Below, piece after piece: positions 14,611 to 64,000 of a stretch of 64,000 nt of DNA. Source of the stretch: Cenococcum geophilum (Eukaryota); assembly GCA_050273025.1 (NCBI GenBank), contig CP158635.1, positions 4,216,001 to 4,280,000 on the forward strand, given 5' to 3'. The notes under the pieces are model-generated. The model was not told where the DNA came from. It saw nothing but the letters and a program-made list of their open reading frames with translations, and searched no databases. How positions within the stretch are numbered: position 1 is the first letter of the stretch; every line of letters begins with the position of its first letter. The position numbers and the translations under genes are program-made.

Positions 14611-15341
14611 ATATTTATAAAATGTAGAAGTTTATTATCAATAAATTTAACTCTTATAATTATTTTAAGTCTATATATAAGGTTAGAACCTTAATAGTTA
14701 ATTTTAATAATTCTATTAAAGATTATATATAGCTCTTATATAAATTAAAATGACGCGTTTAATAAATCTACCGAAGTCCCTTAGACTATTTAATTAACTT
14801 TTTAATTAAAAGGTTAGCGATATCCGCTTGCGGATATACATTAATAAAGCCAAAGCAATTGGGGGTTGACATTGCAAGCAGGCCCTTAGTACCCTCCCAC
14901 TCACGAAGTACGGAAAATATAGGGACGGCCTTCTTACCGCCCTGCAGGGTGAATGAGGCAGGCCCGTTATAATCACCTACCGCGATAAGCAGTGACTAGT
15001 GGGGTTAGGGATAGGTAAGGCAAACGCGGGGTGATGTTTGGGTAGGGGCTTGCGCACTATGCAGATGTAAATAACTCAATTCACGTAATGTTCTAACTTG
15101 ACCAGGAAGGAACTAAACTTAACTAGGAGGGGATATCCGCGTTATTAATTGGGGGAGTGCCCTCATATCAATTAGAGGGGCGTCAATCTACCGCCACCCC
15201 ATCTATAAATGCTGCTGGCTGTATCTGTTCGTCATTTCGGGCTCTTAAAATCTATTACTACCGCAGGAGTTCAAAGCACACCAGAAACAACGCGAAGCCA
15301 AAAACCAAACACTCGTGCTCCTCAGGCTCAAACCATAAAAC

Positions 15342-18074
15342 ATGTGCCGTACCAAGCCCACCAACTCCTGCTGTCATGGCAATCACGTGAACCTGAGCGG
15401 TCACTTTTCTTTCCTTACAAATTGGCTCCACACGAGGAGTGGCTCAGGTGGATTGCACCACACTGGGAAAAATGATTCCACGGACAGTTGCTGCCATGAC
15501 CCAAGGGACAATTCGGATAAACAGGAAAAAGGGTCCAACCATTCCTTAGAAGAAACCGAGAATGTGACCTGTGTGAATCTTACGGCAGAAACGGAGCCTA
15601 TACCTGAAGCAGGTGATCTAGAAAGAGGCCTTCCAACCATCGAGCAGGTTATACTCAGTGTCGGAGGGATGACATGCAGCGGCTGCGAGCAGAAGCTGAT
15701 CAGAGCCTTAGATGAGATTCAATTCATCTCTGACTACAAGACGAGCCTAGTGCGGGCAAGAGCAGGATTCAATCTAGACGCGAGCCGCCTATCGGCTGAA
15801 GATGCGATATCCAAGCTGAAAAGATTGACAGGATATAGCTTTGAGAGGATCGAAGAAGAGGACGGCCAAATTTTGGAAGTGTTGGTTGATAATCCAGTAA
15901 CATTTTGCAACCGTCCAAGGCCACACGGCGTTAGGTCCCTTGAAACCGCTATTAAGGTCAACAGCAAAATGGTCCGTATTCAGTATGATGCTTCGCAAGT
16001 TGGCCCCCGTGATCTTCTTGAGCGAGGGTTTACAGAGCCGCTCGAACTGGCTCCGCACAGGGTCCACCCCGAAATTGCAGCAGGCGCAAGACAAAGTCGG
16101 AAGGCAGGAATCCTCTTCCTCTTTGCAATGACCTTAACCATGCCAGTACTAATATTTGCGTGGGCTCCAATTCCTGGTCCAAAATTGGTCTACAACTCCG
16201 TCTCTCTGGGACTCGCCACGATAATTCAACTAGTTGTAGCAAAAGAATTCTACCCTTCCACTTACACGGCTTTGTTTCGCTCGGGGCCCATGGAGATGGA
16301 TTTTCTCATCGCCCTAAGTTCCAGCACGGCATATATTTTCTCGGTCGTCGCATTCGCTTACATCGTCAATGGCCACCCCCTCTCCACAGGTTCTTTCTTT
16401 GAAACCAGTACACTTCTAGTAACGTTAATCCTCTTGGGTCGCTTCGTCAGTGAGTTGGCTCGACAGATAGCAGCCAGATCTGTGTCATTTAGATCAATAC
16501 AAGAACACAAAGCTCTTCTCATAATCGGAGATCGCGGAACCACAAAGGAAATCGATTCGTGCCTTCTTCAACGTGGTGATATTTTCAAAGTTCCCCCTCA
16601 TTCCAGAATTGTGACGGATGGAAAGGTGGTGCTCGGCGGGTCGGAGGTAGACGAGTCAATGGTGACTGGTGAACCAATACCGGTTGTAAAAGGATTGGGC
16701 CATACTGTGATTGCCGGCTCGTTAAATGGCAACGGAGAATTGCAAGTCGCCCTCACGGCTCTTCCATTTGAGAATTCTATAAGCAAAATTGCTAGCTTGG
16801 TCGAGGATGTAGAGCTTTCTAGGCCGCGAGTCCAAGCTCTCGCTGATCGTGTGGCCAGTTATTTTGTCCCGGCTATCATCGCGATCACTTTAATCGTCTT
16901 CGCAGTCTGGATTCTGATTGGCGTCTTTGTCCGCAGACAGAGTAGAGGGGAGGCGACGGTTCAAGCACTCACTTATGCTGTAGCAACTCTCATTGTCTCC
17001 TGTCCCTGTGCTATTGGTTTGGCGGTTCCTATGGTTGTGCTGATAGCTGGAGGTGTTTCAGCACAGCACGGGATAGTTTTCAGAGATCCTCAAAAGATCG
17101 AGACTGCGCGAAATGCGACGCATGTCGTCTTCGACAAAACCGGCACGCTTACTAAGGGCGAGATGTCAGTCGTTCATGCAGAGTATCAAGGAGATTCACA
17201 AGAGACCAAAGCCCTTCTACTTGGATTGGTCTCAGATATTAGCCACCCAGTGTCTATTGCTATTACGAAACATTTGAAGAAGGAGAGGGGCCTAGAGCCA
17301 GTGAAGTTGAGAGATATCACTTCTATACCTGGAAAAGGTGTAGAAGGGCGGTTTCAACAAAGGGTCATCCGAGCTGGCAATTCTGACTGGCTGCATGTCG
17401 AAAATCTCGAACCTGTAGAAGCTCAGCTTCAAACACAGCATAGCGTTTTTTGTGTTACCATTGATGGAAAGCTCCATGCGCTGTTTCGACTTCAGGACCC
17501 AGTTCGAGATGACGCGGCCGAGGTTGTCTCTCAGCTCATGTCTCGTGGAATTAGCGTCTCAATGATTAGTGGCGACGATGATGGCCCGGTTCAGAATATC
17601 GCGCATATCGTCAATATCCCTAGGAAGAAAACCAGGTCGCGTTGCACACCTGCCGCCAAACAGGACTACGTACACAAGATTCAGAAGCAAGGGGACGTGG
17701 TAATTTTCTGTGGTGATGGAACAAATGATGCCGTCGCCCTTACACAAGCTGACGTTGGTGTACATATGAGTCAAGGCTGCGATGTAGCACGAGGGGCCGC
17801 GGACGTCATCTTAACTTCATCTAAGCTCTATGGCATACCCATCATGATCGACATCTCTCGCGCTTCTTATCGCCGCATCATGTTTAACTTTGCCTGGGCC
17901 GCCCTCTACAATGTCGGTGCTGTGCTCTTGGCTGCTGGCGCCTTTGTCAATGTGCGAATTCCTCCTGCATTTGCCGGTTTGGGTGAGATTGTAAGCGTGC
18001 TCCCTGTGGTTCTCATAGCCTTTTGGCTCAAGTATAAGGACTTCACCGGGAAATTCAGGCCCAAACGAACTTAA
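15342..18074 (+). CDS. P1B-type heavy-metal-translocating ATPase, Pca1/PcaA-like (Cd/Cu efflux type), 910 aa, apparently intronless
   Basis: Long ORF without RIP damage. Motifs: HMA GMTCSGC, FFETS, actuator DESMVTGEP, TM CPC, phosphorylation DKTGT, N-domain SHP, GDGTND, TM YN. The last TM reads AGLGEIVSVLPV rather than the MxxSS of Ccc2/CopA, a form I associate with yeast Pca1-like pumps. The true start may lie upstream (see findings). Confidence 0.93.
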   Translation: MCRTKPTNSCCHGNHVNLSGHFSFLTNWLHTRSGSGGLHHTGKNDSTDSCCHDPRDNSDKQEKGSNHSLEETENVTCVNLTAETEPIPEAGDLERGLPTIEQVILSVGGMTCSGCEQKLIRALDEIQFISDYKTSLVRARAGFNLDASRLSAEDAISKLKRLTGYSFERIEEEDGQILEVLVDNPVTFCNRPRPHGVRSLETAIKVNSKMVRIQYDASQVGPRDLLERGFTEPLELAPHRVHPEIAAGARQSRKAGILFLFAMTLTMPVLIFAWAPIPGPKLVYNSVSLGLATIIQLVVAKEFYPSTYTALFRSGPMEMDFLIALSSSTAYIFSVVAFAYIVNGHPLSTGSFFETSTLLVTLILLGRFVSELARQIAARSVSFRSIQEHKALLIIGDRGTTKEIDSCLLQRGDIFKVPPHSRIVTDGKVVLGGSEVDESMVTGEPIPVVKGLGHTVIAGSLNGNGELQVALTALPFENSISKIASLVEDVELSRPRVQALADRVASYFVPAIIAITLIVFAVWILIGVFVRRQSRGEATVQALTYAVATLIVSCPCAIGLAVPMVVLIAGGVSAQHGIVFRDPQKIETARNATHVVFDKTGTLTKGEMSVVHAEYQGDSQETKALLLGLVSDISHPVSIAITKHLKKERGLEPVKLRDITSIPGKGVEGRFQQRVIRAGNSDWLHVENLEPVEAQLQTQHSVFCVTIDGKLHALFRLQDPVRDDAAEVVSQLMSRGISVSMISGDDDGPVQNIAHIVNIPRKKTRSRCTPAAKQDYVHKIQKQGDVVIFCGDGTNDAVALTQADVGVHMSQGCDVARGAADVILTSSKLYGIPIMIDISRASYRRIMFNFAWAALYNVGAVLLAAGAFVNVRIPPAFAGLGEIVSVLPVVLIAFWLKYKDFTGKFRPKRT

Positions 18075-18552: not shown

Positions 18553-20041
18553 ATGTCACAACGTACTCCTTTATGCCCAATTTCTGGTAACGAGACTACC
18601 AGAAAGGAGCTTACACCCCTGCAACGCGCAGAAATTACAACTGCAGCTGCATGGGGTGTCAGTCGACGCGAGATCAAAAAGCACTATAACGTGCCAAAAT
18701 CCACCGTTCAGGACACTAGAAGTCTATCCCACCTCGTGCACGGCCCCACCTCGTGCACACCTTTTTTATTTCCTTAATAATAATTTAACGCCTTAATAGA
18801 ATTCTTTAAAATTTAAATATATTACACTTATAAATATAGAAAATAAGTAATTAAACTTTTTTTTAAAAAAAATTTAATAGTTATTAAGTTATTTAATTAT
18901 TTAGCCTTTTTAAATAATTAATAATAACTTAATAAACCTTTTTTTTTTTTAAAAAAAAAAATTTCTATATAAGTTTTTAAGGGTTTTAAATATAATATTT
19001 TAAATTTTTAAGTTATTTTATAGTGGTGTTAAAAAGTTCTAAAAACGGACTTTTTTTTAGTGGGGAATTTGGTGTAGCCGTGCACGAGGTGGGACCGTGC
19101 ACGAGGTGGGATAGACTTCTATCAGTAAGGCCTCCGAACGAACCAACCAACAGTCGGCTGCTCGATCTGGCCGGCCAAGACAGTATACTGCTCGTGACGA
19201 AAGATACCTGCTACGTGTCATACGCGAAAACCCTAAGTATACCTACCGGAAGCTCAAAGATCATACGAAGCTTAATTTTTTACGAAAAACCCTATGGCGG
19301 ATTCTCCACCGCAATGGTATTACCAATTGGCGGGCTAAGAAGCGTCCCTTTCTTACAAACGAGGTAGCAGCCAAAAGACTTGCGTTTGTAAAGAAGTATA
19401 TCCTTATAAAGGAGGAATGGGCTAAAATTATCTGGTCTGATGAGTGTTCTGTTAAGCGAGGATCCGGCAAAATTCGTAGCTGGGTATTTCGGCAACCACA
19501 CCAGAAGTGGGATAGGGAAATGATTGATATATACAAGAAAGGAAAGGATATATCTGTTATGGTCTGGGCTGCATTTAGTAACGCACTTGGAAGGTCTAGT
19601 CTCTATATTATAGACCGTGATCCTTAGTTAAAGAAGGGGGGGTACTCCGCTCGATCTTACCTTAAAGTACTTAAGGAAAACATACCTTGGTGTTAGGATT
19701 TTAGTCTTACATTTATGCAAGATAATGCACCAATCTATTATGTAAAGGTTATTAAGAAATACTTCCGCGATTTGGGTATAAGCCTACTTAAATAGCCGCC
19801 ATATAGCCCAGATCTTAACCCGAATGAACACCTCTGGTAGTACCTTAAAAAGCTCGTCTACCAGGTACGGCCTAACATTAAGACTCTTACGGGGGAGGAA
19901 GCAATACGAGAGGCTTTAGAAAGTGCATTAGAGCAAGCGTGGGAGCTAATTGATTAAAAGATATTTAATAGTGTATTAGATAGTATGCAGGAGCGCTACT
20001 AAGCTATAATTGCCGCAGATGGGTAGCATACGAAGTATTAG
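18553..20041 (+). pseudogene. Tc1 DD34E transposase, disrupted by a MITE and RIP stops
   Basis: Removing 18719-19121 restores the frame: MSQRTPL...VPKSTVQDTISKA...RSGRP...IIWSDECSV...VMVWAAF...FMQDNAP(34 aa)E, PPYSPDLNPNEHLW. In-frame TAG stops occur only in the 3' half. Confidence 0.9.
18719..19119. mobile_element. MITE (Tc1-mariner/pogo type), 401 bp
   Basis: ~40-bp TIR GAAGTCTATCCCACCTCGTGCACGG(C/T)CCCACCTCGTGCAC with an internal direct repeat; TA TSD (18717-18718, 19120-19121); extremely AT-rich core. Confidence 0.92.
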
Positions 20042-27200: not shown

Positions 27201-29192
27201 AGCCTTTTACCTTTATTAAGTGCCGAAGTAGCTCGCTATCCTACTTCTCTTACATCTTATAAAGCGATAGACATCGTATCTAGTGGGGTCTTGATCCCTA
27301 CTAATGTTCCTTATTTTATAGTAAAATCATCCTCTACCTCTAGTATAACATCTCTAAGGTTTACGTGCTCCTAGTAAGCCGCTTTTATCGCCTTATTATT
27401 ATAAAATGTTTTGCCTATATTAAAGTTATCGTCCTTAATATCCGATCTGCAAACTAGTTCGTTAGTTCCTTTATATTCCGCTAAGTATAGCTCTTATAGC
27501 TAATAGCTTACGCCGTACTTAGCGTCCTTATAAATTCGGCATGCATTATTATAATAAAACGTAAAACTTTTAATTAAATATTCTTTTGTTCCTCGCAGTA
27601 TATTATTGTCCCTCTATACGTATATATCGTCTACTAGTCTTATTCCTTTTACTATATAGTAACCCTAACTACTCCTGCAGTCTCTAATATAATAACTCTA
27701 TTTTCCGCAATTTATGCAAGCTCCTTCCTTAAACTATTTTTCTTACTATAGAGTCCGCCTAAATGTCTTCTGCTGTTAAGATCCCTAATTTAACCTCTGC
27801 TCTTTAAACCTTTAATTACTTAAACCTTATCCTCTAGGTTTCCATAGTCTCTTACCCCATTTCTTATAGGCTTCTTTAGTACTACTTAGGTCTATTAGCT
27901 CTGCGCTATACTATAGTTTTTAACTTAGCTTTAGTCGTTGCGTACTCTATACCTTATATAACTATAGAACTCTATCTTAGCCCCTCTTAGCCTATTCCCT
28001 TTAGTAGATCTAATTATTAATCTTAATTACTTAATCTATTAGTTCCCTTAGAGTGTCCACATCTTCTATTAGGATAATCGCGTCCTAGACTTTAGCCTTA
28101 AGTCCTTATTTATACTATACTATAAGCGCCTTATTATTCTACTTAACTTATATCGCTAACGTTTAGAACTGCGTTATATACTTAATTGCTAAGGTTTATT
28201 ATATAATATCTTAGAGTTTTCTTTCCGCTATAGTTACCGCCTCTAGGTCTCTAAATATCTATATTAGTTGTTCTGTAAACCCTTCCTAGCTTATAAATAT
28301 AAACCATACTTCTTAATTAGTAGTCATTATGCCATTCGCTTATATTTCCGTAAGGTAAAGCTTAAACTACTTAAGTGCTCTTCCTAACAGGAATAGTCCC
28401 GCATATACTATTCAATCTATAAGTGTTAGCAGCTTTGCCCCTTCTTATATAACCTTAAAGTGCATTTATATAAGGAATCCTTTAAGTTTTAATCTTTCTC
28501 CTAAGTACCTTTCGATTAATAGTAGCTTAATCTTTACTGCTCCTATCCCGTTAATCCTATTTTCTAACATTACATTATTTTCTATTAGCTAGTTAACTAT
28601 CTCTTATAGTTATCTAACTGTTATAGGTTGCTATAAGTTAGTGTTTACTATACTAGTGTCGTTACCTAACCTTAAAGTAGTTGCCGCCGTTAATAGCGTT
28701 GTGGTTAGTGCTTTTAGTGGCATATTATTTAACTTTCTATATTTAATACCGTAACTAGGTAGTAATTATATAACGGAACCTTATAGCAAGTACTACGATA
28801 GGCTTATTAATAGGCTAGGTGTGTAGGTAATATAAATTAAAGTTAACAACGTAATAATAACTAGTGGAGTGGTTGCCTAATAAATTAACTCTAATTGTAT
28901 TCTAAGAATTACTATAAGGAAGAAACTATCTAGGTAGGGATTAAGGGTCCTTAAATACACAACCGTACTCCTATAAAATCCTTCTTATACGTAATATACG
29001 TATACTTTATCTGCTCTGTTATAGATCCTATAAATCCTACAAATTATATAGATTACGTCACGTGACCTTGGTTACTATTCTTTGTTATATAGCTCTATCG
29101 GCTCTATTCTAGACCATGCTTATATTAACCAACTAGTTTCTTCTAACTCTTCCCTAAGTAGTTGTAATATTGTACTTAAAGCGTCCGTAACA
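21252..29192 (-). mobile_element. Full-length Ty3/Gypsy family C with extended gag and an antisense 3' ORF, RIP-inactivated
   Basis: 424-bp LTRs at 21252-21675 and 28769-29192; TSD TATTT (21247-21251 / 29193-29197); degenerate RT, RH, INT and chromodomain in ~22480-25700. Confidence 0.93.
21784..22480 (+). pseudogene. Antisense accessory gene in Gypsy family C: Cys-rich (CxxC...C...CxxC...C) domain plus coiled coil; probably spliced; end approximate
   Basis: De-RIP reading MPK.ISSS.TARRIRT..AILSLGEIMPSPCSRCSKKGLVCI.LANPSSRQPSSCSECTKANI..SCD..SVS.., then ..EAADTQQQALESRL.ASARLIRLEK.HEKVRF. The second copy (1-470, minus strand) keeps different unmutated codons, e.g. TGC in AAG TGC ACT AAA GCG. 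Confidence 0.6.
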
Positions 29193-29444
29193 TATTTGTA
29201 TTGAGCGGCAATCATTTACCTTTATATTATATCTATTTAGCTAAAGTAGGCCGCGAAGGATAATCCTTATAGAATTCTTTTACTAAGGATAGCGCGTCGG
29301 CCTTAATCTGGTTATAGGTTTCCTAGGTTCGTGTTTTATATCCTTTCCACTTAATAAGAAGTTTAAATTGTTTAGATTATATTTTCTATTATATATTATT
29401 AATTAAGTTAATAAAGTAAGAACCATTACCGTTATTAATAATTA

Positions 29445-30391
29445 GTAGTAGTAGTAGATTCAATTTACCGTCCGACCCAGTCCCCCTAATGGGTCCACGC
29501 AGACTAATTCCTATGGAAAAAGCTTATATTATATTAAGAAAACCTATTTTTGGGTAAACAAAAAACCTCCAGGGGAAACGTGAGAGGTAATACTTCTAGA
29601 TAGCATCCGTATTACATTAACGGGAGGAGAAAAACACCATCAGGTTACTGCTTTGAGACTCCCCTTGCGCGAGAGTGTCTAAAATGCCTGTCTTGCCCCG
29701 TCTGCCACTTAAACCATTTTTGCCACGTCTGTGTATTGCCTATATAAAGTCGTGTGCCTGTCCCTAGCTCCTTTTCTAAGTCTCCTGTAAATATCTCCTA
29801 ATAATAACGCTTGCGCTCCGCCTGGGCCTATATGCTAAGGTCTCTTATCCATTCCTTTATTAAAAGGTTTCTATAACAGGGTGTATATAACTTAGTATTG
29901 CTTTTGCCCTAGGGCCTAAACCTAGGCCCTTACACCTATTTATAAGGTATAGAAGAACGCTCTAATATTTAATAGGGGGGACTAGTCCCTATAACTAGAT
30001 ACCTAGGTTACTAGGTAATGTTAAAATAGGGGGCCTCTGCTACGCTTAGGGCGCGGATTATTTGCGTATGTATGTGGTTACTGTGCGGTATATATAGTAT
30101 TTATAGGAGGGAGGGGGTACGCCGAAGGGATAATTGCTTGTTAATTTGAATAACTAAACGTGTATAATAGACGTAGTAGCTATATTTAAACTTTTTACTA
30201 AGGCTCACCCCCTAGTGAAATTTTTTTACACCACCACCACCATGTCGCTGCGTAGGCGCTGCGCAGCCGTATATACGTCTCTGCGTTTGCTCTGGTAGTC
30301 TATTAACACGATCTAAATGGAACATCAATAGTAACTGCCAGGTTCCCGGGCTCCACCGCGTGGAGGTGCAGAGGCCGATTTCATTAAGCCC
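29445..30391 (-). mobile_element. Non-autonomous retroposon (SINE-like, 947 bp) with an HDV-like ribozyme head and a Tad1-like LINE tail
   Basis: 13-bp TSD TTATTAATAATTA (29432-29444 / 30392-30404). The 3' end ...GGACCCATTAGGGGGACTGGGTCGGACGGTAAATTGAATC(TAC)n closely matches the LINE end at ~53234-53278. The body does not resemble LINE ORF2. Confidence 0.88.
30277..30391 (-). ncRNA. HDV-like self-cleaving ribozyme (predicted)
   Basis: Minus strand: P1 GGGCUUA / J1-2 / P2 GCCUCUGC / P3 ACC / L3 UCCACGC / P3' GGU / P1' GGAGCCC / P1.1 GG / long P4 (CUGGCAGU..CUAUUGAU paired with GUUAAUAG.ACUACCAG) / J4-2 CAAAC (candidate catalytic C at 30289) / P2' GCAGAGAC. Confidence 0.8.
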
Positions 30392-33300
30392 TTATTAATA
30401 ATTATAGGGGGTAGCGGCGGTACTTTATAAGTTAAAGGTTTACCTTTTAAAGGTTATAGTAAGCTTACGTAAAACGTTGGGTATATTTTTATTTTAGTTA
30501 GTAGTTTAAGCTTATAGGTATATAGGCTTAGTTTCTTCTTAACTTAGTATAGGCCCGCAAACTTCCAATTAAGTTTTTTTAAGGGTTATTAAGTCTTGAG
30601 GTTTTGCATATTTAGGTAAACTATATTACCTTCTTTAAAGTCCTATATAGGAGCTTATCCTTTATTCGCATGCTATTCCTATACTATTTAAGCATACGTT
30701 AATTTACTTTATAATAGTTCCGTTAACTACTTTATTTAATTAGCGAAGTTATATATATTAATTAACTAAATCTATTTAATCGTGGGTCCTATTATATTAA
30801 TTTTGGGTTATAGTTTAAATCTAAGTTAAGGGTCTTATCCGTATGTTACGTAGAACGGCGTTACGCCTATTAATAAGTTTATTATATTATTTGCAGTAAA
30901 CTTAGCTAAAAGCAGCCATTTTTCTTAGTTGTTTTATAGGTAGGAGTAGTATATTTATAGGTATTATTCTATAATCGCGTTTACAATTTTAGTTTAACCA
31001 TTTATCTCTAGATAAAAAGCGGTTAAGAGTCGTGTTTAAATACTTAATTATTTATATAGAGTTTGCTAGAAGTCTAAAACAAACTAGCTTCTATAGTTGG
31101 ATATTATTAAGTTAAAAAGTCTATGTAACTTAAAGATATACTTAATAAAACATTTAGCTACTAATATCGCATTAATTAAGTCTATGGGGATTATATATCG
31201 CATTTTTATAAGACGGTTAATAACTACTATAATGTTTGTGAACCTATTACTGCTAGGCAAGTTAACTATAGAGTTAATTAAGATATCGCGCTATCTTTAT
31301 ATCGGAATTAGTAGTGGTTAAAGTACTCCTTACTTCTTTATATAAGAGGTCTTTCTATATATGCACATCCTATATACTTAAATGTATTTTCGTATATAGT
31401 TATATATTATAGGCTAGTAGTATACTTATTAAACAATTTTATAAGTCTTTGTATAGCCAGGATGTCCTACTACTAGGGAGTTGTGTATAAATCCAAGTAT
31501 CTTAAATTATAAAGATTCGGAATTCGGAACTACTATCTTCTATTAATAGTATAATCAGTTATTTTAATTTTCGCATTTAGCGAGTGTAATATCCTTATAC
31601 TATTATTTTCCTAATTAAATTGCTTTTATTATATCTATTATCTATATATTATTCTTATATTTGTATTTTATTAGCTTATTAATTTCTATTTCCTATTTAT
31701 TAACTTCTAATTTATTTTTATTAAGCTCCGTATTTAGGAATATAGGGCGTAGTTTTTTAAAGCGTTTAGGAGGCAGTAGAATTTGTAATTAATTTATAAT
31801 CCATTTATTAGAGGCGTTTATAGGTAAGTCCTATAATTATTATATTAATAAGTTAGGCTTCTAATTAAGTTTACTAGGTTAGTATATAATCTTAAAGTTA
31901 GATTATAAAAGGTATTCGGCCTAACAAATTTAGCGTTATATTAATTGCTTTATAGTTATAAAGTACTATAGGTTTTTATAGTCTATTAATACGCGTATTA
32001 GAAATAATAATCCTTTAAGTTCTAGACGCTATTATTTAAAGTATTTAATAATTATAAGCAGTTCCTTATTATATATCTTATAGTTTAATTTAGTAAAGGT
32101 AAATTTTTAGGGGAGAAAGGCTACTAGGCGCAGCTCGCCGTTTTTATTATATTGTAATAACACTCCTCCTAGTATATAATTAAACAAGTCTGTTTTAATA
32201 ATATATTTAAGGTCCGGATTAAAGTAGGTAAGAATTAGAGCAGTTATAAAATAATATTTTAGGTTATTAAAAGCTTATTCGTATTTAGTAGTCTATTTAA
32301 ATCTTATATTCTTCCTTATTAAGTTTATTAATAGCTAAATAATCTTTAAGAAGTAATTAATAAATTAATAATAGAAATTTACAAATTCTAGAAATCTTTA
32401 GATGTTTTATATATTACTAGGACTTTCCTAATTCACAATTATAGCGATTTTTTTAGGGTTTATTTTAATTCCGTTGCGGGATATAATTAGGCTTAAGTAT
32501 ATAACTTTAGATACGTAAAACTTATATTTCTTAATATCGCATTATAAGCCTACGTCTTATAGGCGTTTAAGAACTATTCGGACGTGCTTCTAATATTTAA
32601 AAAGTAAAATAAAATAAAATAAGATATTATTAATATACGCGGTAATAAATACATTAAGGAATTTGTAAAGTGTATTATTAATATATTACTAAAATATACT
32701 AGGACCGTTCTTTATACTAAATAGCATTGCTAGGTATTTAAAAAGTCCCTATTATATATAAAAGGCCGTATACTTCTTATCTCCTTTATAAATACAGATT
32801 CGGTTAAAGGTAGCAACTACATTAAGCTTTATAAAGTATTATGCTTTTACTAAGTAGTTAAGCGTTTCTTAAAGTAGAGGAATTAAATATTGGTTTTAAA
32901 TTATAATTGCATTTAAGGCTTAATAATTAATATAGAACCTTAAGCCTTCTTTAGGTTTCTTAATAAATAGTATAGGTAAGGTAAATAGTAATTAATTAGG
33001 GCGAATAAATCCTTTCTCTAGGTGCTCTTTAAGGTATTATTACATTATAAGTAGCTCTTCTCGCGATATACCGTATAATGGGCCGAACTTTGGCGTTATA
33101 CTAGGTTTAAGTTTTATCTTAAAATCGTACTTATTTTAATGCGGGGGTAGTTAGTCTATAAATCGTTTCTTAAACGTATTAATTAGGTTATAATATTCTT
33201 TAGGTATAAGAGGTCGGGGGTTAATATATTGCTTTAGTTTTAACGCCTTTTTAATATCTTCTAACGTTATAGTAAAGATCTTATAGTCTTAATTTCTTAC

Positions 33301-48005: not shown

Positions 48006-51000
48006 GACGAAAAAGCCGCAACAGTAGTGAAACCAGCCTAAAACCACCTAATAAAGCAACCCGACATCGGAATCCTATTCCCCGCACTAAGAAACCCTAT
48101 AAAACCACGGCGCCCCTATCTATAAAGCATGGTGGACAACGGGGGATCGCAAGCTTCCCGCTAAAGCGACGAAAGTTGTAACGTAAGGGAGCCGACCTAT
48201 AAACCAGGCGGGTAATAACGCGAAAAGGATAACCGCTAGCTTAACTAGTAATAGCAAAAATTAAAGGAAATACTCGGACAAATTAAAGACAATCTTATAA
48301 AAGAGGAGGAAGAAACCCTATAACACTAGATACTTATTACTGTTTAAGAGGTAATATAACGCGTTAAAGCTCTCTTAACGCGTCTGGCGCCTTATATAAC
48401 CTAAAAAAAGAAAACTAAGACCTAACTTAACTGGATTAAAGCTGGTATTATAAAAATCCAAAAGAAAACGTGTAAAGGAGGACTATTAGGTCCGGAAGCC
48501 CCCCTAGTATAGGGCCAGACCTAAGCAGCTGTCGCTGCGTAGGCGGCCCGTATAGTAAACGCAGTCACGACACTATAGAGAGCAATAGTACGCGTCCGGC
48601 TTAAGGAGCCCTAGGGCTATAAACTAGGGGCGCTTCTTAAGACTATTTAGAGAATAATACTAAGCGTATACGCCGTACGCACCCTTAATAGCGGGGACAT
48701 TAATATTTACGTCCCCTCCTAAATAATAAAGGATTAAATCTTAAATGGACCAGACGCGCTAAAACTTAAGATATTAAGGAAAGACTACCTCCTAGAAGTA
48801 CCTGGGGTCCCACTTAAGACCCTAATTAATAGCGGAAGGAACGTTAGATAACTTAGAATTAATTTAATCCATCTATAAAGCTATAAAGCGCCTTGCGTTT
48901 GGAATAGCTATTAGCCGGATTTAATAGCTACACGCCCCTAAAGCGCAGGCGAAACGCTAGGCAAACCTTAGTAGCGCCTAAAGAGAACCTAAGAAGATTA
49001 GAGGGACCCTTATAATTAGTGTCCTAACCTAGGCAATTTAGCAAAAGATTATAAAAAGTAGAATAGTTATTAAATCCTAGCTTTTTAAGACTAGGCTATT
49101 TAAGAATAGTATAATTATAAAGTAATGTTACTAATATAATTAATAGGGATATACGTAAAGCGTATACGGAAAGCAAATAAAATATAGATAATATATAGGA
49201 CCTTACAACACCATAGATTGCCCTAAGGAAAGGGTATCCTGTATTAACTATGGTAAAGCCTATAAAGTATAGTAAAGAAAGGAATGTAAGACCTTTTAAA
49301 GCTACCTTAAGGGCATCTAAATAAAAAGAATAGCCCTTTTAACGCAGTTACTCCGTATATAAGAAGCTACAGAAACAATATACCCACCCCTAATACTAGG
49401 AAACTTTATAATTATTACTAATAAAAAAAGAGGATGGGAAATATTAGGGACCTAAGAATAACCAGTTAAACGGGGGCTAGGTAAATTATCCTTTATTAAT
49501 AAAGCAAGTAGAGATAGTTTATAATTAAGGCTCTAGTTACGTACTAATAGAGTAATAATAGTTACTAGCGATAACGAAGAGGACTAAGACACTAATATAG
49601 AGGAACCTATACCTACCCTAAATAAGTAAGTGTATAATTATTTAGTATAACTACAGAAATGTAAATTAAGGGGCGTGCCGCCCCTTCTTTAACAGCGTTA
49701 TACTGGTAGACTATTAGGTCCTTATAATCCAGGAGCCGGTATATAATAGGTATACTAAATTAATATACTACCCTAGGGGATTCATACTTACGTACGACGC
49801 TCTCCCTATAATAAAGGTCTGCTTTATAATTAGCCAGGATATTAAAGCTGCGTATTAGAAGCGTAGATAGTACGGCCCCTTTACCGTAGCCCTTTAGGTG
49901 CGCCTAAAGGGGCTAGAGATAATAATTATTAACATTTATAACCTACGTGAAGACAGCCCTTAGATTAGGACATGGCCTAAGGTTAAAATAGCTATTAAGG
50001 AGGCCAAGGGAGAAATTATACTCTTAGGCGACTTTAATGCCTACTACCTAATGTGGGGTAAAAAGTATATAGCTAGCAAAAAACAGGCGGAACGCCTACT
50101 AGCCGAAACCGACGCTAAAGGTCTTATACTTGTTATATTAAGAGGAGAGCCTATATAGAAAAGAGGGGAATAGAAAAGCGTAATTAACCTCACGTTTATA
50201 TCCCTAAATTTATACAGAAAAGTTAACTTCTATAGTATAGTTAAGGAATAGGCCCTTATAAGAGACCATATACCTATCCATATCCAAATTAATAACGCCG
50301 GCTGTCTGTTAGCAAAACGCCGGCGTCTTACCCTTAAAAAACTAGACTTATAAGGCCTCCTTTAAAGCATCTAGGAGCTTAACTAGGCTATATTTAAAGA
50401 CCCCCTTTAAGCCCTTTAAGAAGGGATTAAATAAGTACTTAAAGAACATTGCCTATAAGTATAACCCAGCTAGTAAGCCTATTAAGAATAGTCGCCATAT
50501 ATTATATAGCTCCACGCCAGCGCCTACTAGGCGCGACAATAGTACTAGGACTATAACGACCCCCAGGACTTATAAAGATACTTAGCACTAAGTAATAAAC
50601 TCCAGAAAGAAACTAGGAGAGTTAGTTGTAATAACTAGAGGTGCTTTATTTAAGAACTTACTAAGGACTAGTTAAAACCCTATAACAAAGGTCTATGGAT
50701 TTTATTAAAATAGAGCAGAAAAGTAAGTATAGTAAAGGTAAACCCTTAGTTACCAGACCTTAGGAAGTCCATTAAGGACCCCTTTATAGACAATAATACC
50801 ACAAAAGTAGATATCCTTATAGTAAAGTTTTTTCCTAAGACTAGTATAGCAGACCTTAGCGATATTAAAATAGAGGCAATAATGGAACAAAGAGTACTTA
50901 ATATTTACCCTATTATTTTAAAAAAAGGGATTAATAGGCTAATAAAAAGCCTCCTAAATAGAAAAGCTTTAGGGCTAAATGGTATACTAAATAAGGTTCT

Positions 51001-53278
51001 TAAAGTAATTGCTTTAGTAATTATAGAGGACTTAGCAAAAGCAGCTAGCTATTATTTTACTAATAGAATAATACTAGAAAGCCTTAAAGAATCTATAACT
51101 ACGGTCTTACGGAAGGAAGGAAAAAAAGACTACTTTCTTCTAAGTAGCTATAAACCAGTTACCCTTAAAAATACGCTAATAAAAGTCCTAGAGAAGTATG
51201 TAGCCAATATTATATTAAAAGCAGCGGAAGAGCATAAATTACTCCTTTAAAACTAAATAGGAGGAAGGCGCAAGCAATCTATACTATTAGCGGTAGGACT
51301 GTTTAGCTCCTATATATAAACAGCGTAGCAAACGCGCCGCGGGTGCGTGGTATTAATGCTAAGCCTAGACATAATAAGAGTGTATAACTATATATCCCAT
51401 AAAAGGCTCCTCTATATCTTAAAAAGAAAAGGCTTTCTAAAGTGGCTTATAGACTTTATATAAAGTTTTCTAATAGCACGTAAGACCTGTATTAAGTTTA
51501 TAGGATATAAAAGCAATTAGATCTAGATATAGACAGGCATCCCCTAAGGGTCTCCCTTATCACTAATTTTATTTCTCTTCTTTATATTAGAACTCTTAGA
51601 GAAATTCTAAAGCCTAAACAGCGGCACGCTAGGGTTTAGCTTTATAGATAATATAAACCTTATTACTTAGGGGGACTCTATAGCTAAGAACTATTAACGA
51701 CTAGAGGCCGCCTATAATTATTACACTATATAGGCAAACTAACACGGCGCGGCGTTTACCCCTAAAAAGTACTAGCTAATGCACTTTATAAGGTAACGGC
51801 GCCACGCCGCTATAGACCTTGCGTCCACCGTACGTATTACCGGCTGCGAGATAGCTCCTAAGAAAACTAGTATACGAATCCTAGGGATCTAGGTAGACTC
51901 TAAGCTTTAGTAAAAAAAACAGATTAAAAAGGCGGTAACTAAAGGCTTAGTAGCCTACAAAGCAATATTAAGGATCACTACATCTATATAGGGCCCATTA
52001 ATGCGCCGCTCGCGCCTCCTATACACGGCCACCGTCTGACTAGCGATGCTATATGGCGCCTAAGTATAGGGAGTATAAGACAACAGCAGAACGCCAGCAA
52101 AAAGCTTACTTAAACCTCTATAGAAAGTCCAAAACTAGTGCCTCTGTAGGGTTATAGGGGCATACTAGCAAACACCAATAGCTGCAATAGAGAAGGAAGC
52201 GGCCATTCCCCCAATCCAACTCTATATTAAGACAACAGCCCTCTAAAGAGCCGCTAGGACAGCTTTAGATAAGGTAAAAAAGGAATTAGTAGAGGCACTT
52301 AAGGGTATCTAAAAAACACTAAGGAAAAGCCGGCGGAAAATAAGACGGCTATTAGTACTACTAAAAATGCTTAGGGACCGCGTAAAGGACTATAAGAATA
52401 AAATATAGGGGTTTCTTATATACTAGAAGGACTGTATAGAATAGGAGGCAGTAATAAACCCCTATAGGCGTAGCTAACAAAACGCTGGCAGAGTGTAGAC
52501 GGAATGCCGCCACTGTATAGAAGGTCACCAGCACCGCTAGTAGGAAACCACCCTTATCGCGAAATGGGCAGACCTAAAATGGCGCCAACGGTGGCAATTA
52601 AAGGCCAAAAATTGTATAGAAACTACGTGGAAGACCCTATAGAGGAAACCTATAATTCTATTATATAAAGATCTAATAAAAGTAGAGGCTATAGTACTGT
52701 TTCTCCTTTGTACGGAGGTAATAGGGCTTAATATATGGCTTACATCCATTAAAGTACCAGAAATTCTCCCGCGATATAAATATAGTTGGATAAGGCAAAC
52801 AGTACACTATATATTATTCCAGTGCCCATAATACTAAAGGGCAGACTTTATAGCATAATACACTTCTAAACGCCTCTAAGATGTCTTAAGCAATAAAAGA
52901 AGTACCTAAGTTGCTGTAAAATAGTTAATATAATTAGGTGCCTTAACTTAGTTCCAGGCTATAAAGGTAATAGATACAGAAGATATAAGTAGATACCAGC
53001 TATTTTAAAGCTTAGAGGACTGGTAAAAATAAGGGTAAAAGGATAAAGGAAGAAGGGGTAGTATAAGATTGTCCGCGAAGCGTGGTTAGTTGGCTTAATA
53101 AGTAGACTTTTAGCTAGGTAGAAGGCAAGTTACCAGCGCCCCGATATCGGAACACTGTTATCTCTCCAGCGCGGCTCGCGATCGGGTTTTCTCTTAGATA
53201 GAGTTTTTCCTATAAAAGGTATTAGCCTACATAGACCCATTAGGGGGACCGGAACGGGCGGTAAATTAAATCTATTAT
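48006..53278 (+). mobile_element. Full-length Tad1-like LINE (ORF1 gag with zinc knuckles; ORF2 APE-RT-Zn finger, no RNase H seen), RIP-inactivated
   Basis: TSD up to 13 bp TATTAAGGATATA (47993-48005 / 53279-53291). ORF1 CxxC..WGH knuckles ~49120-49290. EN QYNC, QEP, GDFNA, IDLTF, DHIPI. RT KA.G.DGI, GIPQGSPLS, F.DD. (TAT)n tail. Confidence 0.93.
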
Positions 53279-53442
53279 TATTAAGGATATATCTAGATAA
53301 TCTTACCTAATAGTAAAATAGGTCTAGGAGATAGCAAAACCTAACTATTATTTAATATTATAATAGAGGAAACTAAAATATATTAGCTTTATAGAATTTA
53401 GTAAGATCTAAAATATAATATACTAGAGTAAATAGAGGCTAT

Positions 53443-59805: not shown

Positions 59806-60333
59806 GCTATAAATTATAAGTGAGATTTTAATCGTACGCCTTATAAACTTTATAATTAAAACTATAAGTATATACTAGTTCTAGAAGATAATATATCTAA
59901 TATAATAGATATAATAATATAAATATATTATTTACATATTCTTTTCTAGTCTTCGTCTATAATTTCCTTATAGTAAAAATTTTATAGCTAAGGGTATAAA
60001 TATTTATAATAAAATACGCCTATATAGAGCATCTATTTTCTAAAGTACTTTAGAGGCTAGAAAGAGTATATATTATACTTATTTTATTCTTTAATATATA
60101 TAAATATTATATATATTAATACTAGAACTAAGTTATGTCTAGGATATGTCTAGGATATATCTAGGATATATCTAGGATATAGTCTTTTATATTTTTATAT
60201 ATCTTAGTAATATTCTTATTATATATCTCTAGATTAGATAAATCTATAATATATTTAATTCTATACTTAGAGGATATAAGATATTCTAGTATCTTTTAAA
60301 TAAATATAAGTCATTCTACTATTAGAGATCTAG

Positions 60334-60495
60334 TGTTACGGATTCCGGCCTGGTGGCCCTTAGCGAGCCTTGGCACCCCACAGTATATAGAGTACTAGTC
60401 CCTTCGCACCTCTTTACACCTTCGTACAATATCCTGTTGTATACTATAGTTAATGCTACGACGTTTACAGAGCCTCCTAACCTTGTTCCGTGACA
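60334..60495 (+). mobile_element. Solo LTR (162 bp)
   Basis: TGTTACGG...CCGTGACA; perfect TSD TCTAG (60329-60333 / 60496-60500). Confidence 0.9.
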
Positions 60496-60810
60496 TCTAG
60501 TATATATAATTAATATTAAGCCTAGCTATATTATAGAATTCTACTTATTACTAGCGTTAAAGAAGAGGTATTAGTAGATTATTATAGCGTAGTATTTAGG
60601 ATTCTTATTTTTTATAATACTCCTAATATAAGCTAAATATATCCTAGTTACTATCTTTAATATTTATATATATACGTTCTTCTTATACTTATTACCCTTT
60701 ATAGAAGAAGTCCTCTTATAATTATTTAAAATCTTTAATTAAGAACTAAGTTACTTTTATTAGTAGTAGTATAGAAGAACTATTTAAAATAGGTAAGTGC
60801 GTAGGAGTAC

Positions 60811-61220
60811 CTAGATTATATTCCAGATTATATCCTAGGTTATATCCTAAATATATTCTAGATTATATCCTAGGTTATATCCTAAATATATTCTAGATTA
60901 TATCCTAGGTTATATCCTAAATATATTCTAGATTATATTCTAGGTTATATCCTAAATATATTCTAAATTATATTTTAGGTTATATCCTAAATATATTTTA
61001 GATTATATCCTAAATATATTCTAAATAATATCCTAGATATATTCTAAATTATATCCTAAATATATTCTAAATTATATCCTAGATATATTCTAAATTATAT
61101 TTTAGATTATATCCTAGATTATATCTTAGATTATATCCTAGATTATATCCTAGATTATATCTTAGATTATATCCTAAATTATATCTTAGATTATATCCTA
61201 GATTATATCTTAGATATATC
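60811..61220. repeat. Minisatellite of 11-12-bp units (CTAGATTATATC-type) with a ~35-bp higher-order period, inside element X
   Basis: Directly visible tandem array starting just after a GTAAGT donor at ~60793. Confidence 0.9.
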
Positions 61221-61488
61221 TTTACACAATTTAAAGTAGTTATATATTATTAGTTATTTCTAATTTAAAGATTATACGATTTTAAATATCCTAAAGATAG
61301 GGTATAGTTATAATATTATATAATTAAGTATATAAATAGCGATAATTTTAAATAATTTTGTATTGAAACCTCATTAAGTGTGCGCGCACGGTGTTAAAGT
61401 TCATCCAGTGTAAGATTTTGTAACGTGGCGTATTTCCACACTCCCGGAGCTTTCGGCAACACTGGCCGAGCTATATGCTCTAAACAAA

Positions 61489-62319
61489 GGCCACTGCCAG
61501 CCACACACCCTAATCACTGCGCGTACACCCCCCAATTGATACGCGCACCCCCCCCACCTAACAGGCTTAGATCCTTCTTCTTCAGGTTAGAACGTCACGT
61601 GTGTTTGACTTGTATGCATCTGCATCGCGAAAATTCAACTTTTAAAATGCAACTTCTATGTATACCACCACAATTAAGTCTTAATTTCAACTATAGTATA
61701 ACTTGGAGTTTAAATCAGAGCCGGAACGCGCCAAAGGACCCCTTAGTAAAGTCTTGCTGAAAGGGCAAGGCCCCACGACCGCTGTAAGCCTGTGAAATAT
61801 TGCCGCCAACACTTAGCAAGCCATCAGCAGAGGCGTCTTAACTTCTACCACCATTCTCGCCACCTGTAATACCACTTGTAATACTACCTACATGCTCCTA
61901 AGTCGATTGATTGGATTGCGCAGTGACTTGTGAGGCAGTATACAAACTAATTTGGCTGCTGCCACCTCTGCTTGTTGTCTGCGGGCTGCCCCCGCGGGCA
62001 CGCCCGCGCCCGCCCCCCCGCCCGGCGGTGTCTGCTTGTTAGTTTTTGAGCGAAATTTTGACACCGCATAGCCCTAGCCTTTTGCGAACTCGTTGATATC
62101 ATCAAGGGCAAAGTTTGCGCAATCATACAGCCTCAGCGGAGGTGGATTGAGAGCCATGGTAGATGTAGGGAAAAGTATGCACGCGCGATAGTTACGCGCG
62201 TACACACGTGACGTTCTAACCTGAAGAGGAAGGATCTAAGCCTGTTAGATGGGGGGTGTGCGCGTATCAATTGGGGGGTGTACGCGCAGTAATCAGGGAG
62301 TGCGTAACTAGCAGTGGCC
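61489..62319 (-). mobile_element. Internally deleted Mutator-like element (MULE), 831 bp
   Basis: ~125-bp TIRs (GGCCACTGC...AACGTCACGTGTGT and reverse complement); 8-bp TSD TAAACAAA (61481-61488 / 62320-62327). The minus strand from 62157 reads MALNPPPLRLYD..NFALDDINEFAKG*GYAVSKFRSK (FAR1-like transposase start) joined to a GR-rich C-terminal piece. Confidence 0.85.
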
Positions 62320-62327
62320 TAAACAAA

Positions 62328-62392
62328 TTGGTGGTTTGGTTTTGATTGGTGGCTGGAGTTCAGGGGGTGGCCGGGTTCTATGGGTCCGAGCT
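62328..62392 (-). mobile_element. pogo/Fot1-like 5' terminus relic, same family as 14203-14431
   Basis: TTGGTGGTTTGGTTTTGATTGGTGGC...GGGTCCGAGCT|TA aligns with 14367-14433. The relic continues on the far side of the MULE insertions (45286-45302). Confidence 0.65.
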
Positions 62393-62670
62393 TATTGTGC
62401 TGCAGGGTTGTCCGCCGACTCCCTCCAACTCTCTTCTTCGTCCACTATACCTTCCAGAAAGCTCGAATGTGACAGTGAAGCATCAACAGTGGAGGTGAGT
62501 AGAAGTACCAAAACACTTATGAAAGAATTATTCGTATATTTAAGTATGACCCCATAGAACATATATATTGCTGTATGCTCCTACGAAAGGCAGTGAGGTT
62601 TCTAGACTATACATATCGTTTATGACACCGAACCACCACATCCTCTTCTACCCTAGCCCACCTCGCTAGT

Positions 62671-63153
62671 ATGGTTTACATTATGGAAATCTATGTCGAC
62701 GGTGGCTGCAGAGGCAACGGGCAACCAGGAGCAATAGGCGCTGCTGCCGCCGTTTTCAAAAAAAGAAATGGAAAATCCGTCGCTTGGACGAAATCTTTAC
62801 CCCTATATCCCCCACCCACAAACCAGCGAGCCGAAATCACAGCCATTATCCTTGCACTGGAGCAAGCCCTGGAAAAGCTTGAAGAGCTAGACACAAATCC
62901 ACATCTAGATGTCAAGATCTATTCGGATTCCAGATATGCGATTGGGTGTATGACAAACTGGATTTACAAGTGGGCCAGAAATGGATGGATCAATGCTGCG
63001 GGCAACGAGGTTGCGAATCGAGATCTTATCCAGGAAGCTTCTCATCTTGATGATAGATTGAAAGAGGAGGGAGACGTGGAATATATCTGGATTTCGAGGG
63101 AGGAGAATCAGCTTGCGGATAGATTATGCAATGAGAATATGGATAAACAATGA
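62671..63153 (+). CDS. Stand-alone ribonuclease H (RNase HI fold, fungal Dikarya-like type), 160 aa
   Basis: Intact ORF without RIP damage. Catalytic DEDD pattern: IYVDGGCRGNG, TNQRAE, IYSDSRY, NQLAD. Basic-protrusion W..NGW..A.G.EVANRDL. WISREEN in place of the His loop. Confidence 0.92.
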   Translation: MVYIMEIYVDGGCRGNGQPGAIGAAAAVFKKRNGKSVAWTKSLPLYPPPTNQRAEITAIILALEQALEKLEELDTNPHLDVKIYSDSRYAIGCMTNWIYKWARNGWINAAGNEVANRDLIQEASHLDDRLKEEGDVEYIWISREENQLADRLCNENMDKQ

Positions 63154-63299
63154 GACGAGAGAGGAAATAATACACTAGCAATTTGGTCTAAAAGAAATGA
63201 GGAAATACGTAACTAACATCAGTTGGATATATCAATGCAAACAACAATGTGTCCGCCCGTCTCAGCTCCCTCCTAGATTGCACCAGCACACCCGGTGTT

Positions 63300-64000
63300 G
63301 TATGTGTGGTCACCCCACCAGTTCGAGGAAAACCGAGGGCCTTTCTTCTATAAGAACTTTATTTTAAAAGTATCTATATCAATAAATAGGTCCTCAATAT
63401 ATATAAAATCTATTTTGTTAAAATAATAAGCTAGTAATTATATACTTTTAAAACGTTAAATAGAATTATTATTGATATTAAAAACGTTTAAAATTTAAAT
63501 AAATTGGTATAACCTGTCGGGAATGAGGCAAGCGGTCATCACGTGCCGCCGCGGCACTAGCGTGGCGAGGAGTCTTAAGCTCCTCGCCCTTCCTTATTCC
63601 AATTAATAAGCTTTATTAACTAACATCACTGTAACCTACTTAAGTAGTTGTTATTGGTGAGTTACCCTATATAACTAACACTAATTAGTGGTTAAATATA
63701 CAGTTAATTATAGAGCAGCTAGGTTTTCGAATAGAAGAGATAGTCTTATATAGGGGTGCTATATACGCTTATATGGAATAGATCCCGGCAATACTATACT
63801 ACCTTAAACTTGCGGAAAACTAGTAATAGAAGTGTTACTAAGTACTAGGAGATACTAAGTTGCGTCTATTACGCAGAATAACCGCGTTTACAAAGATTTG
63901 GTTAAGTACTTTAGGTCAGAAATATTACTAAACCTAAGGTCCTAAGTTAACGTCCAAAACGCGTTAAATAACTACCTTAACACCCTCTATATACCTTCGC
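63300..64000. other. Start of a further RIP-degenerate repeat block; LTR-like TG...CA segment at 63515-63625
   Basis: Abrupt shift to TpA-rich sequence; TGTCGGG...ACTAACA segment; family not identified. Confidence 0.4.

Follow-up and report, generated by a model that had tools for sequence, protein, structure and literature searches.

A family of fungal non-autonomous retroposons with a candidate HDV-like ribozyme at the 5' end

The stretch of DNA analyzed here, hereafter the window, comprises 64,000 nucleotides of the genome of Cenococcum geophilum (NCBI GenBank assembly GCA_050273025.1, contig CP158635.1, positions 4,216,001 to 4,280,000). It contains, on the minus strand at 29445..30391, a 947-bp non-autonomous retroposon composed of a ribozyme-like head, a non-coding body and a tail resembling that of a long interspersed nuclear element (LINE). 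The window is fungal-type and AT-rich, with strong signatures of repeat-induced point mutation (RIP), the indices outside two gene islands being 1.5-2.1 for TpA/ApT and 0.14-0.5 for (CpA+TpG)/(ApC+GpT). In minus-strand orientation, G30391 is the first base of the element and C29445 the last; the element opens with GGGCTTAATG and ends in (TAC)4, with the same sequence, taattattaataa, on both flanks. The two copies of this 13-bp target-site duplication (TSD) occupy 30392..30404 at the 5' end of the element and 29432..29444 at its 3' end. When contigs and reads of four public runs were mapped on 29200-30650 at 80% likeness, two contigs, which represent other copies of the surrounding host repeat, were found to join 29431 to 30392 and 29434 to 30395, respectively. 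These joints omit 960 bases, that is, 947 plus 13. They thus correspond to the unoccupied site, and both the insertion and its TSD, noted in a first-pass annotation made from the sequence alone, can be considered real. The host repeat itself (29200-29444 and 30392-30650) is far more abundant than the element, with a summed contig word depth of 13,900-211,000 versus 1,500-48,000 in two genome runs.

The 3' tail of the element (29445..29512, minus strand, with (TAC)4 at 29445-29456) is 80.6% identical over 67 nt to 53217-53283, the 3' end of a RIP-degraded LINE located on the plus strand at 48006..53283. This 5.3-kb LINE is bounded by a 13-nt repeat, TATTAAGGATATA, found at 47993 and across the 3' end, and it encodes an endonuclease (about 49922-50278) and a reverse transcriptase (RT; about 51122-51892). 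Its frame, with X at stops, is recognized by the Pfam models Exo_endo_phos_2 (5.8e-08) and RVT_1 (8.2e-13). The LINE-type tail claimed in the first-pass annotation is thereby substantiated. Furthermore, the terminal ~100 nt of the LINE match 24 tails of the family described below at 71-82%, and a second LINE copy (L002) has the same 3' end. The LINE at 48006-53283 is a candidate source of the reverse transcriptase. Members of the Tad1 clade carry an APE-type (apurinic/apyrimidinic) endonuclease, an RT and an RNase H in their second open reading frame (ORF2). No RNase H was found in three RIP-degraded copies of the LINE, a word-based homologue search with a 166-aa LINE open reading frame (ORF) returned nothing, and the label "Tad1-like" for the partner LINE is a guess.

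At the opposite end of the element, positions 30277..30391 constitute a candidate hepatitis delta virus (HDV)-like ribozyme, designated as such from pair counts, a descriptor match, a score of 145 bits (by construction) with the family covariance model R1 presented below, and a weak match to the Rfam family drz-agam-1 at 30308-30390. In HDV-like ribozymes, the cytosine of J4/2 serves as general acid and L3 carries the CC dinucleotide which forms P1.1. All the following parts lie on the minus strand. The 5' strand of P1, GGGCUUA (30385..30391; family consensus GGGCUYC), faces P1' GGAGCCC (30348-30354), and six of the seven pairs are formed. The 5' strand of P2, GCCUCUGC (30368..30375), is the partner of the P2 3' strand GCAGAGAC (30277..30284), and the core at 30355..30367 consists of P3 ACC, L3 UCCACGC and P3' GGU, with 30367-30365 pairing with 30357-30355. 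P1' is immediately followed by the P1.1 GG (30346-30347, the two together spanning 30346..30354), in which G30346 and G30347 pair with C30363 and C30362. The P4 hairpin, a variable arm supported by double-sided changes in the family and by RNAalifold, occupies 30292..30341, and J4/2, CAAAC, extends over 30285..30289, C30289 being the candidate catalytic cytosine. The first 115 nt of the element accommodate every helix of the HDV-like nested double pseudoknot, J1/2 included. The sequence of the window copy allows all five pairings to be drawn from its first nucleotide, as had been claimed, and the cleavage site is predicted to lie immediately 5' of G30391. HDV-like ribozymes are defined as a nested double pseudoknot with P1, P1.1, P2, P3 and P4 in canonical order (PMC4908430). 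The core had been described as one base away from that of the HDV ribozyme, and the window copy indeed differs by one base from a 14-mer, CACCTCCTCGCGGT, present in a published HDV ribozyme oligonucleotide (PMC2850903) and carried unchanged by the subfamily L062/L075/L076.

Considered alone, the head in this single copy is suggestive, not compelling. The window contains a single exact match to the core 13-mer, and core matches with up to two mismatches are at chance level (6 versus 5.3 expected); near matches at 11565 and 48787, with two mismatches each, have no ribozyme context and were rejected. A strict descriptor gave no match in the window and none in 100 shuffles, missing the site at 30391. 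After its P4 rule had been loosened post hoc, with the sequence already known, the sole match in the window was 30391/30367/30284, and five matches were obtained in 300 dinucleotide shuffles, i.e. ~0.017 per window. In the window region and in eleven better-preserved loci, the Rfam scan gave no HDV-type family besides drz-agam-1, which scores 19.8-26 bits in the latter loci.

A family search with a 21-nt core containing one N, performed against metagenome contigs, gave at least 120 loci, on which the counts below rest. Ninety-four heads were aligned, each with 34 nt of upstream sequence (alignment A1, in which the heads of L037, L093 and L098 are shortened or aberrant). The covariance model R1 was built from 88 heads (alignment A2), with omission of L119 and of the shortened or internally deleted heads of L037, L041, L044, L093 and L098. 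Among the matches listed, R1 scores 53-150 bits in 118 of the 120 loci, two copies being present in L038; L013 (no R1 match) and L097 (17 bits) are GC-rich chance matches to the search pattern and were left out of the alignments. L113, which is not among the sequences that built R1, scores 79.7 bits. The incomplete heads differ in what they have lost: L041 is devoid of all sequence after the 5' half of P4, L044 of J4/2, and in L037, P1, J1/2 and the 5' strand of P2 are replaced by unrelated sequence. Family members are about 830-1070 bp long and fall into subfamilies which have the head (~130-200 nt) and the tail (~300 nt) in common and differ in the middle. Six loci (L026, L035, L038, L039, L064 and L073) contain full-length relatives of the window element with 88-91% identity.

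These copies begin at a sharply defined position. In BLAST comparisons with the window element, the alignment starts at base 1 or 2 in most loci, and in A1 the upstream 12-mers are all distinct (94 of 94 copies), similarity beginning at G1. In the 11 columns preceding position -1, the most frequent base accounts for only 35-53% of the 94 copies. Position -1 is an A in 64% of them, a preference which fits an AT-rich target. G1 is a G in 83% of copies and the four columns that follow are 93-99% conserved, the most frequent starts being GGGCTTC (34), GGGCTCC (21) and GGGCTCG (8), followed by further one-step variants and by CGACTCT (3). Among 33 copies examined, 11 are flanked by a TSD of 12-16 bp which abuts G1 without a gap (the window copy, L073, L052, L018, L077, L053, L056, L035, L051, L047 and L041). 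The remaining ones have no clear TSD; eight of them possess another type of tail and several of the contigs end early. Copies with this second tail were also inspected, and five of nine (L012, L024, L032, L049 and L076) have a TSD of 11-15 bp abutting G1, while in L011 eight exact bases abut G1, L055 has a 13-bp TSD plus one extra G, L006 is ambiguous, and L038 contributes the leader-bearing copy described below. In these 16 TSD-defined copies the duplication abuts G1, and therefore 16 independent insertions have a retroposed cDNA whose end coincides with the predicted cleavage site. Together with the onset of similarity in A1, this answers positively the question, raised in the first-pass annotation, of whether full-length copies start at the same G. 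Adjoining copies were also encountered: in L114 (5-410), a family tail stops ~15 nt before the next head, indicating head-to-tail copies, and in L073 (6960-6985), the TSD itself ends in GGGCT.

The alignment also bears on the fold. With the full pseudoknotted structure, 87.5% of the 3172 cells of A1 are paired, versus 33-44% when the partners are slid by 1-3 columns; by helix, paired cells amount to 93.3% for P1, 86% for P2, 100% for P3, 69% for P1.1 and 77-96% for P4. Changes on both sides are seen for 12 pairs, a number attained in 4 of 500 shuffles, and nine pairs of P4 show such changes. RNAalifold, which is blind to pseudoknots, recovered de novo the six-pair P2 helix, whose six inner pairs are at least 95% paired, and three parts of P4. 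P4a/P4b takes forms as different as CUAGCAG/CUGUUAG, CCAGCAG/CUACUGG and CUGAAGG/CCCCUCAG, and in L113 and L119 the whole P4 arm is replaced by a 7-bp hairpin, P1, P2, P3, L3 and J4/2 being unchanged. Unrelated P4 hairpins on an unchanged core are likewise present in L075/L076, L031 and L068, and L004 has a further P4 variant. P4 possesses, in addition, a conserved internal loop, with (Y)UA on the 5' side in 71 of 88 copies and A on the 3' side. As judged from the aligned copies, the fold support provided by the family derives mostly from P4. The invariance of P3, L3 and P1' is uninformative, since the search pattern prescribed these parts (in P1', six of the seven bases). Pattern scans free of P1' gave no match in viral contigs; a match in a Pseudarthrobacter genome was not recognized by R1 and was taken as chance.

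Outside of P4, the individual positions vary as follows. Of 88 copies, 79 have C and nine have T at the position of C30289, and J4/2 reads CAAAC (71), TAAAC (9), CTAAC (4), CCAAC (2), CAGAC (1) or CAAGC (1). L3 is UCCACGC in 84 copies, UCCUCGC in three and UCCGCGC in one. The two C-G pairs of P1.1 are present in 78 and 51 of the 94 copies, the losses being G>A changes. The G1 pair is G-C in 61 of the 94 copies, G.U in 17, A-U in three and unpaired in 13. A C precedes ACC in all copies, a position fixed by the search pattern, and it can pair with the G starting GCAGAG, which allows reading it either as an insertion or as an extra P2 pair. Three mismatches of the window copy had been singled out in the first-pass annotation. 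The C.A mismatch in P4 was expected to be repaired by reversing a G>A change, which agrees with the family, this pair being C-G in 13 copies and U-A in ten, so that a G>A origin is plausible. The same explanation does not hold for the C.A mismatch in P2: the second P2 pair is C.A in 92 of 94 copies, little-RIPed ones included, and, on the evidence of the alignment, is a conserved feature of the family. As for the A.G pair at the base of P1, it is indeed present in the window copy, but it is private to it, the pair being C-G in 69 of 94 copies, and in a related fungus all 32 RNA reads have C at position 30385.

One lineage departs from this pattern at P1. L038, L092 and L115 have CGACUCU where others have GGGCUCC, which breaks two of the seven P1 pairs, that of G1 included. 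In these three loci, a conserved sequence of ~226 nt lies upstream of the head, and in L038 (leader copy at about 1660-2745 in original coordinates, minus strand) a 14-nt TSD, ATATATACCCTATA, flanks the unit at the 5' end of this leader, with none at the P1 site. The same leader is joined to the head in RNA contigs from a fungal metatranscriptome (loose ends at 30381). The one lineage with a damaged P1 thus keeps upstream RNA in the retroposed copy, as a ribozyme model predicts. Copies extending upstream without preserved pairings had been named as evidence against a ribozyme, and the only such lineage found is this one, in which P1 is broken. A 5S origin of the leader was considered and dropped, Rfam matching it to no family.

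Regarding coding capacity, a search of the element in six frames, with stops read as X, gave no Pfam domain. No RT or endonuclease ORF follows the head in the 19 longest loci, LINE-like pieces being located elsewhere or on the opposite strand. The absence of a coding domain, the 3' end shared with a LINE and the TSDs of 11-16 bp are the features of a LINE-dependent retroposon. No Rfam match to tRNA, 5S or 7SL was obtained in 28500-31500, no convincing A or B box of RNA polymerase III (pol III) was seen in 25 copies, and internal T5-T7 runs are present in 25 of 25 copies examined, little-RIPed ones included. Because of these internal T-runs, and with neither an A/B box nor a tRNA, 5S or 7SL match, the element is not a strict pol III short interspersed nuclear element (SINE), as had been anticipated.

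Stranded RNA reads of the related fungus cover the head at a depth of ~740 and the tail at ~40-250, with none over the middle of this subfamily. The strand bias over the element is ~70 to 1 (first mates, 740 versus 11), as expected of sense transcripts provided that the library is a standard one. In RNA, the region 30229-30375 is several-fold to tens-fold deeper than the tail in run X21, or than body plus tail in run X15, and many reads diverge shortly downstream of the head region. Because of this excess depth and of the downstream divergence, the head is taken to be common to several transcribed element types.

The modularity extends to the 3' end. The first tail type, that of the window element, ends in ...GGTAAATTGAATC(TAC)n, and a second type, ...CAAGAACAAA(TAA)n, is found on the same head in at least nine loci, including L006, L011, L012, L024, L032, L049, L055 and L076. 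This second tail suggests the use of a second LINE partner; a LINE carrying the (TAA)n tail was not found.

The surveys of Ruminski in 2011, of Webb in 2009 and of Webb and Luptak in 2011 reportedly list a few fungal HDV-like ribozymes, 11 according to Li et al. (2017, BMC Genomics). The latter authors described 230 HDV ribozyme variants from 26 fungal species, two of which self-cleave in vitro, the cut lying at the base of P1 (PMC5640933). In the fungal variants, a G-C pair replaces the usual wobble at the cleavage site, an additional nucleotide, usually C, separates P2 from P3, and a loop E motif takes the place of part of P4; they exhibit widely variable gene associations and are given no role (PMC5640933); the strings "transpos" and "SINE" both have 0 occurrences in the text of the paper. 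Compared by description rather than by sequence alignment, the present family is similar in its G-C pair at the cleavage site (61 of 94 copies) and in its many dispersed copies with variable neighbouring genes in filamentous fungi, and the C between the P2 and P3 strands, here fixed by the pattern, is compatible with their extra C (PMC5640933).

Ribozymes at the first nucleotides of non-LTR (long terminal repeat) elements are established outside fungi. In trypanosomatids, the LINEs and short dependants L1Tc, NARTc, ingi, RIME and SIDER begin with an HDV-like ribozyme, Pr77, whose cleavage at +1 releases the element from co-transcripts; the short members rely on the LINE (PMC3185411, PMC4035085). 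The position of the head is the same here. In contrast, the LINE and the short element have the same head in trypanosomatids, where it is also a promoter, whereas no headed LINE was found here, and the organisms belong to different kingdoms. In R2 and R2 short internally deleted elements (SIDEs) of Drosophila, a 5' ribozyme likewise sets a precise 5' end, the 3' end is recognized by the element's own protein and non-autonomous derivatives retain both ends (PMC3414825). Unlike R2, which inserts at a specific site of 28S rDNA and is transcribed together with it by RNA polymerase I, the family is dispersed over AT-rich sites with TSDs of 11-16 bp. The similarity to drz-agam-1 of Anopheles (RF01787) begins at the second base of the element and spans the core ACCUCCnCGnGGU, and in L113 the match reproduces P2, P3, P4 and J4/2; with 18-26 bits, below the gathering score of 37, the family is nonetheless not a member of that model. 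Mg-SINE of Magnaporthe has a tRNA-like pol III head, unlike the present element, which is without A/B box and carries internal T5-7 runs. The two are alike in being short fungal retroposons with a LINE-mimicking 3' end, by which reverse transcription is primed in the case of Mg-SINE and the LINE MGL (PMC2104539).

A 2019 review reports ribozyme-bearing LINEs and SINEs in diverse metazoans (PMC6765202), and in a November 2026 paper plants and metazoans are still the only groups named as having retrotransposons linked to ribozymes (PMC13725137). Literature searches returned no paper tying fungal HDV ribozymes to retroposons, although older surveys of HDV-like ribozymes could contain one. The novelty suspected in the first-pass annotation is hence to be narrowed: the link between a ribozyme and a retroposon in fungi was not found in the literature, but fungal HDV variants cleaved in vitro have been known since 2017 (PMC5640933) and ribozyme-headed non-autonomous retroposons were already known in trypanosomes and flies (PMC3185411, PMC3414825). 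What seems new is the fungal link of a reported ribozyme class to LINE-dependent retroposons, the modular tails and the natural P1 mutant.

Collectively, these data make it probable, in our opinion, that the window element is a RIP-mutated copy of an abundant family of fungal non-autonomous non-LTR retroposons which operate through a ribozyme head. The element would be built from three modules, namely a ~115-nt HDV-like 5' head, a subfamily-specific non-coding body, and a LINE-derived tail of ~70-100 nt with a triplet repeat. A polymerase different from pol III would make its RNA, starting at a promoter located upstream or reading through. From its anatomy and from the family evidence, the putative ribozyme would then cut just 5' of G1 and shed the upstream RNA, which would account for the observed start of full-length cDNA at G1. 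A LINE protein would presumably recognize the common tail in trans, and target-primed reverse transcription at AT-rich sites would leave the observed TSDs of 11-16 bp. Catalysis at G1 is, in this proposal, deduced from the conserved architecture.

Several observations weigh against this proposal. The drz-agam-1 match in the window, obtained with permissive settings, reaches 18.4 bits with an E of 2.4 for a gathering score of 37, and in the family ten matches over eight loci are at 18.3-26 bits versus the same 37. Even the descriptor loosened post hoc is passed by only 32 of 90 loci; in those failing loci that were read, P1.1 or other parts are altered by G>A or C>T changes, the pattern expected of dead DNA copies in a RIP genome. 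P1, P2, P3 and L3 are nearly invariant, with almost no covariation in P1, P3 and L3, and of the covariation sought throughout P1-P4 following the first-pass annotation, it is P4 that varies with pairing kept. Many of the double changes in P4 are transitions which RIP alone could make on both sides. The conserved P2 C.A mismatch does not speak for a perfect helix, and the argument from a natural P1 mutant relies on a single lineage. No pile of RNA starts at 30391 was listed, random-primed reads seldom showing 5' ends. Finally, R1 with filters off gave no ribozyme at the 5' end of the LINE (GACGAAAAAGCC...), the one LINE 5' end present in the sequences examined and that of a copy which may be 5'-truncated.

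The same observations can be read in other ways. The element could be an internally deleted LINE derivative, of the R2 SIDE or NARTc type, with a head inherited from the LINE; the mechanism would then be identical and only the origin would differ. The tail is LINE-derived, the LINE copy of the window may have lost its 5' end, and in each known case considered the autonomous element also has the ribozyme (PMC3185411, PMC3414825). We regard this origin as rather unlikely, since the TSD-bounded LINE at 48006-53283 begins with unrelated sequence, R1 finds no other head in the window (the next best score, 16.6 bits inside an ATPase gene, was taken as noise), no RT or endonuclease ORF follows the heads of the 19 longest loci, the body is without detectable LINE similarity outside the tail, and the same head is associated with two tail types. 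Alternatively, G1 could be a transcription start and the head a structured non-catalytic leader, such as a promoter or a protein-binding element, which resembles an HDV ribozyme. The sub-threshold Rfam scores and the invariance of P1 and P3 would suit such a leader, and an added promoter role is plausible, the same 77 nt being promoter and ribozyme in trypanosomes (PMC3383444). That catalysis would be absent altogether is nevertheless improbable: the five pairings and the J4/2 cytosine occur in the correct order and spacing, the core is identical to or one base away from that of the HDV ribozyme, P4 can be exchanged, a trait of HDV-like ribozymes, upstream RNA is retained in the lineage whose P1 is broken, and related fungal variants cleave (PMC5640933).

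Two further explanations have been considered. In Magnaporthe, TSD-bearing chimeras such as WEIRD-MGL arise when the RT of a LINE switches template from the 3' fragment of the LINE to an abundant cellular RNA (PMC2104539), and the modular construction of the family would be in line with a chimeric retrogene of this kind. Within subfamilies, however, junctions and lengths are identical, and therefore the unit amplifies as a whole, and in the sequences examined the head was never met away from the 5' end of an element, which makes this origin very improbable. That the HDV-like layout in the window is a chance resemblance might be argued from the post hoc tuning of the descriptor, its five matches in 300 shuffled windows and the Rfam E of 2.4. 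We find this hardly tenable for a layout which is present again in 118 loci and which, in 16 copies, begins at the very nucleotide that the TSD defines as the 5' end.

The window contains further features besides the element and the LINE. In a less RIPed stretch, an intact ORF of 175 aa (62626-63153, plus strand) encodes an RNase H (Pfam RNase_H, 2.6e-24). It was examined as a part of the LINE and rejected, being intact and stand-alone with no RT in 60001-64000, and it may rather be a cellular gene. A GC-rich island contains an ORF for a heavy-metal P-type ATPase (15339-18074, plus strand; E1-E2_ATPase and HMA domains), together with a helix-turn-helix fragment of a Tc3-type transposase (19115-19627, plus strand).

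Returning to the ribozyme-headed retroposons, a broader view can be put forward tentatively, at somewhat less than an even chance. An HDV-type ribozyme may be the defining 5' module of a group of fungal LINE parasites, in which self-cleavage, instead of a pol III gene, would set the 5' end. This head would not be shared with the partner LINE, recombination would have joined it to several bodies and to two or more different LINE tails, (TAC)n and (TAA)n, and the orphan fungal variants reported in 2017 would mostly be such heads.

It has been established that, in animals and trypanosomes, HDV-like ribozymes determine where non-LTR retrotransposons begin, and that fungal variants exist and cleave. 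The family described here connects both facts and suggests a purpose for the fungal ribozymes. It offers more than 100 natural variants, including forms with a minimal P4 and a natural P1 mutant, and it provides a system for asking if a short retroposon can swap a pol III head for a self-cleaving one and exchange LINE tails. For the annotation of RIP-rich fungal genomes, it represents a class of repeats missed by tRNA-based SINE finders. If the broader view put forward above is true, the orphan fungal HDV ribozyme variants would gain a biological role.

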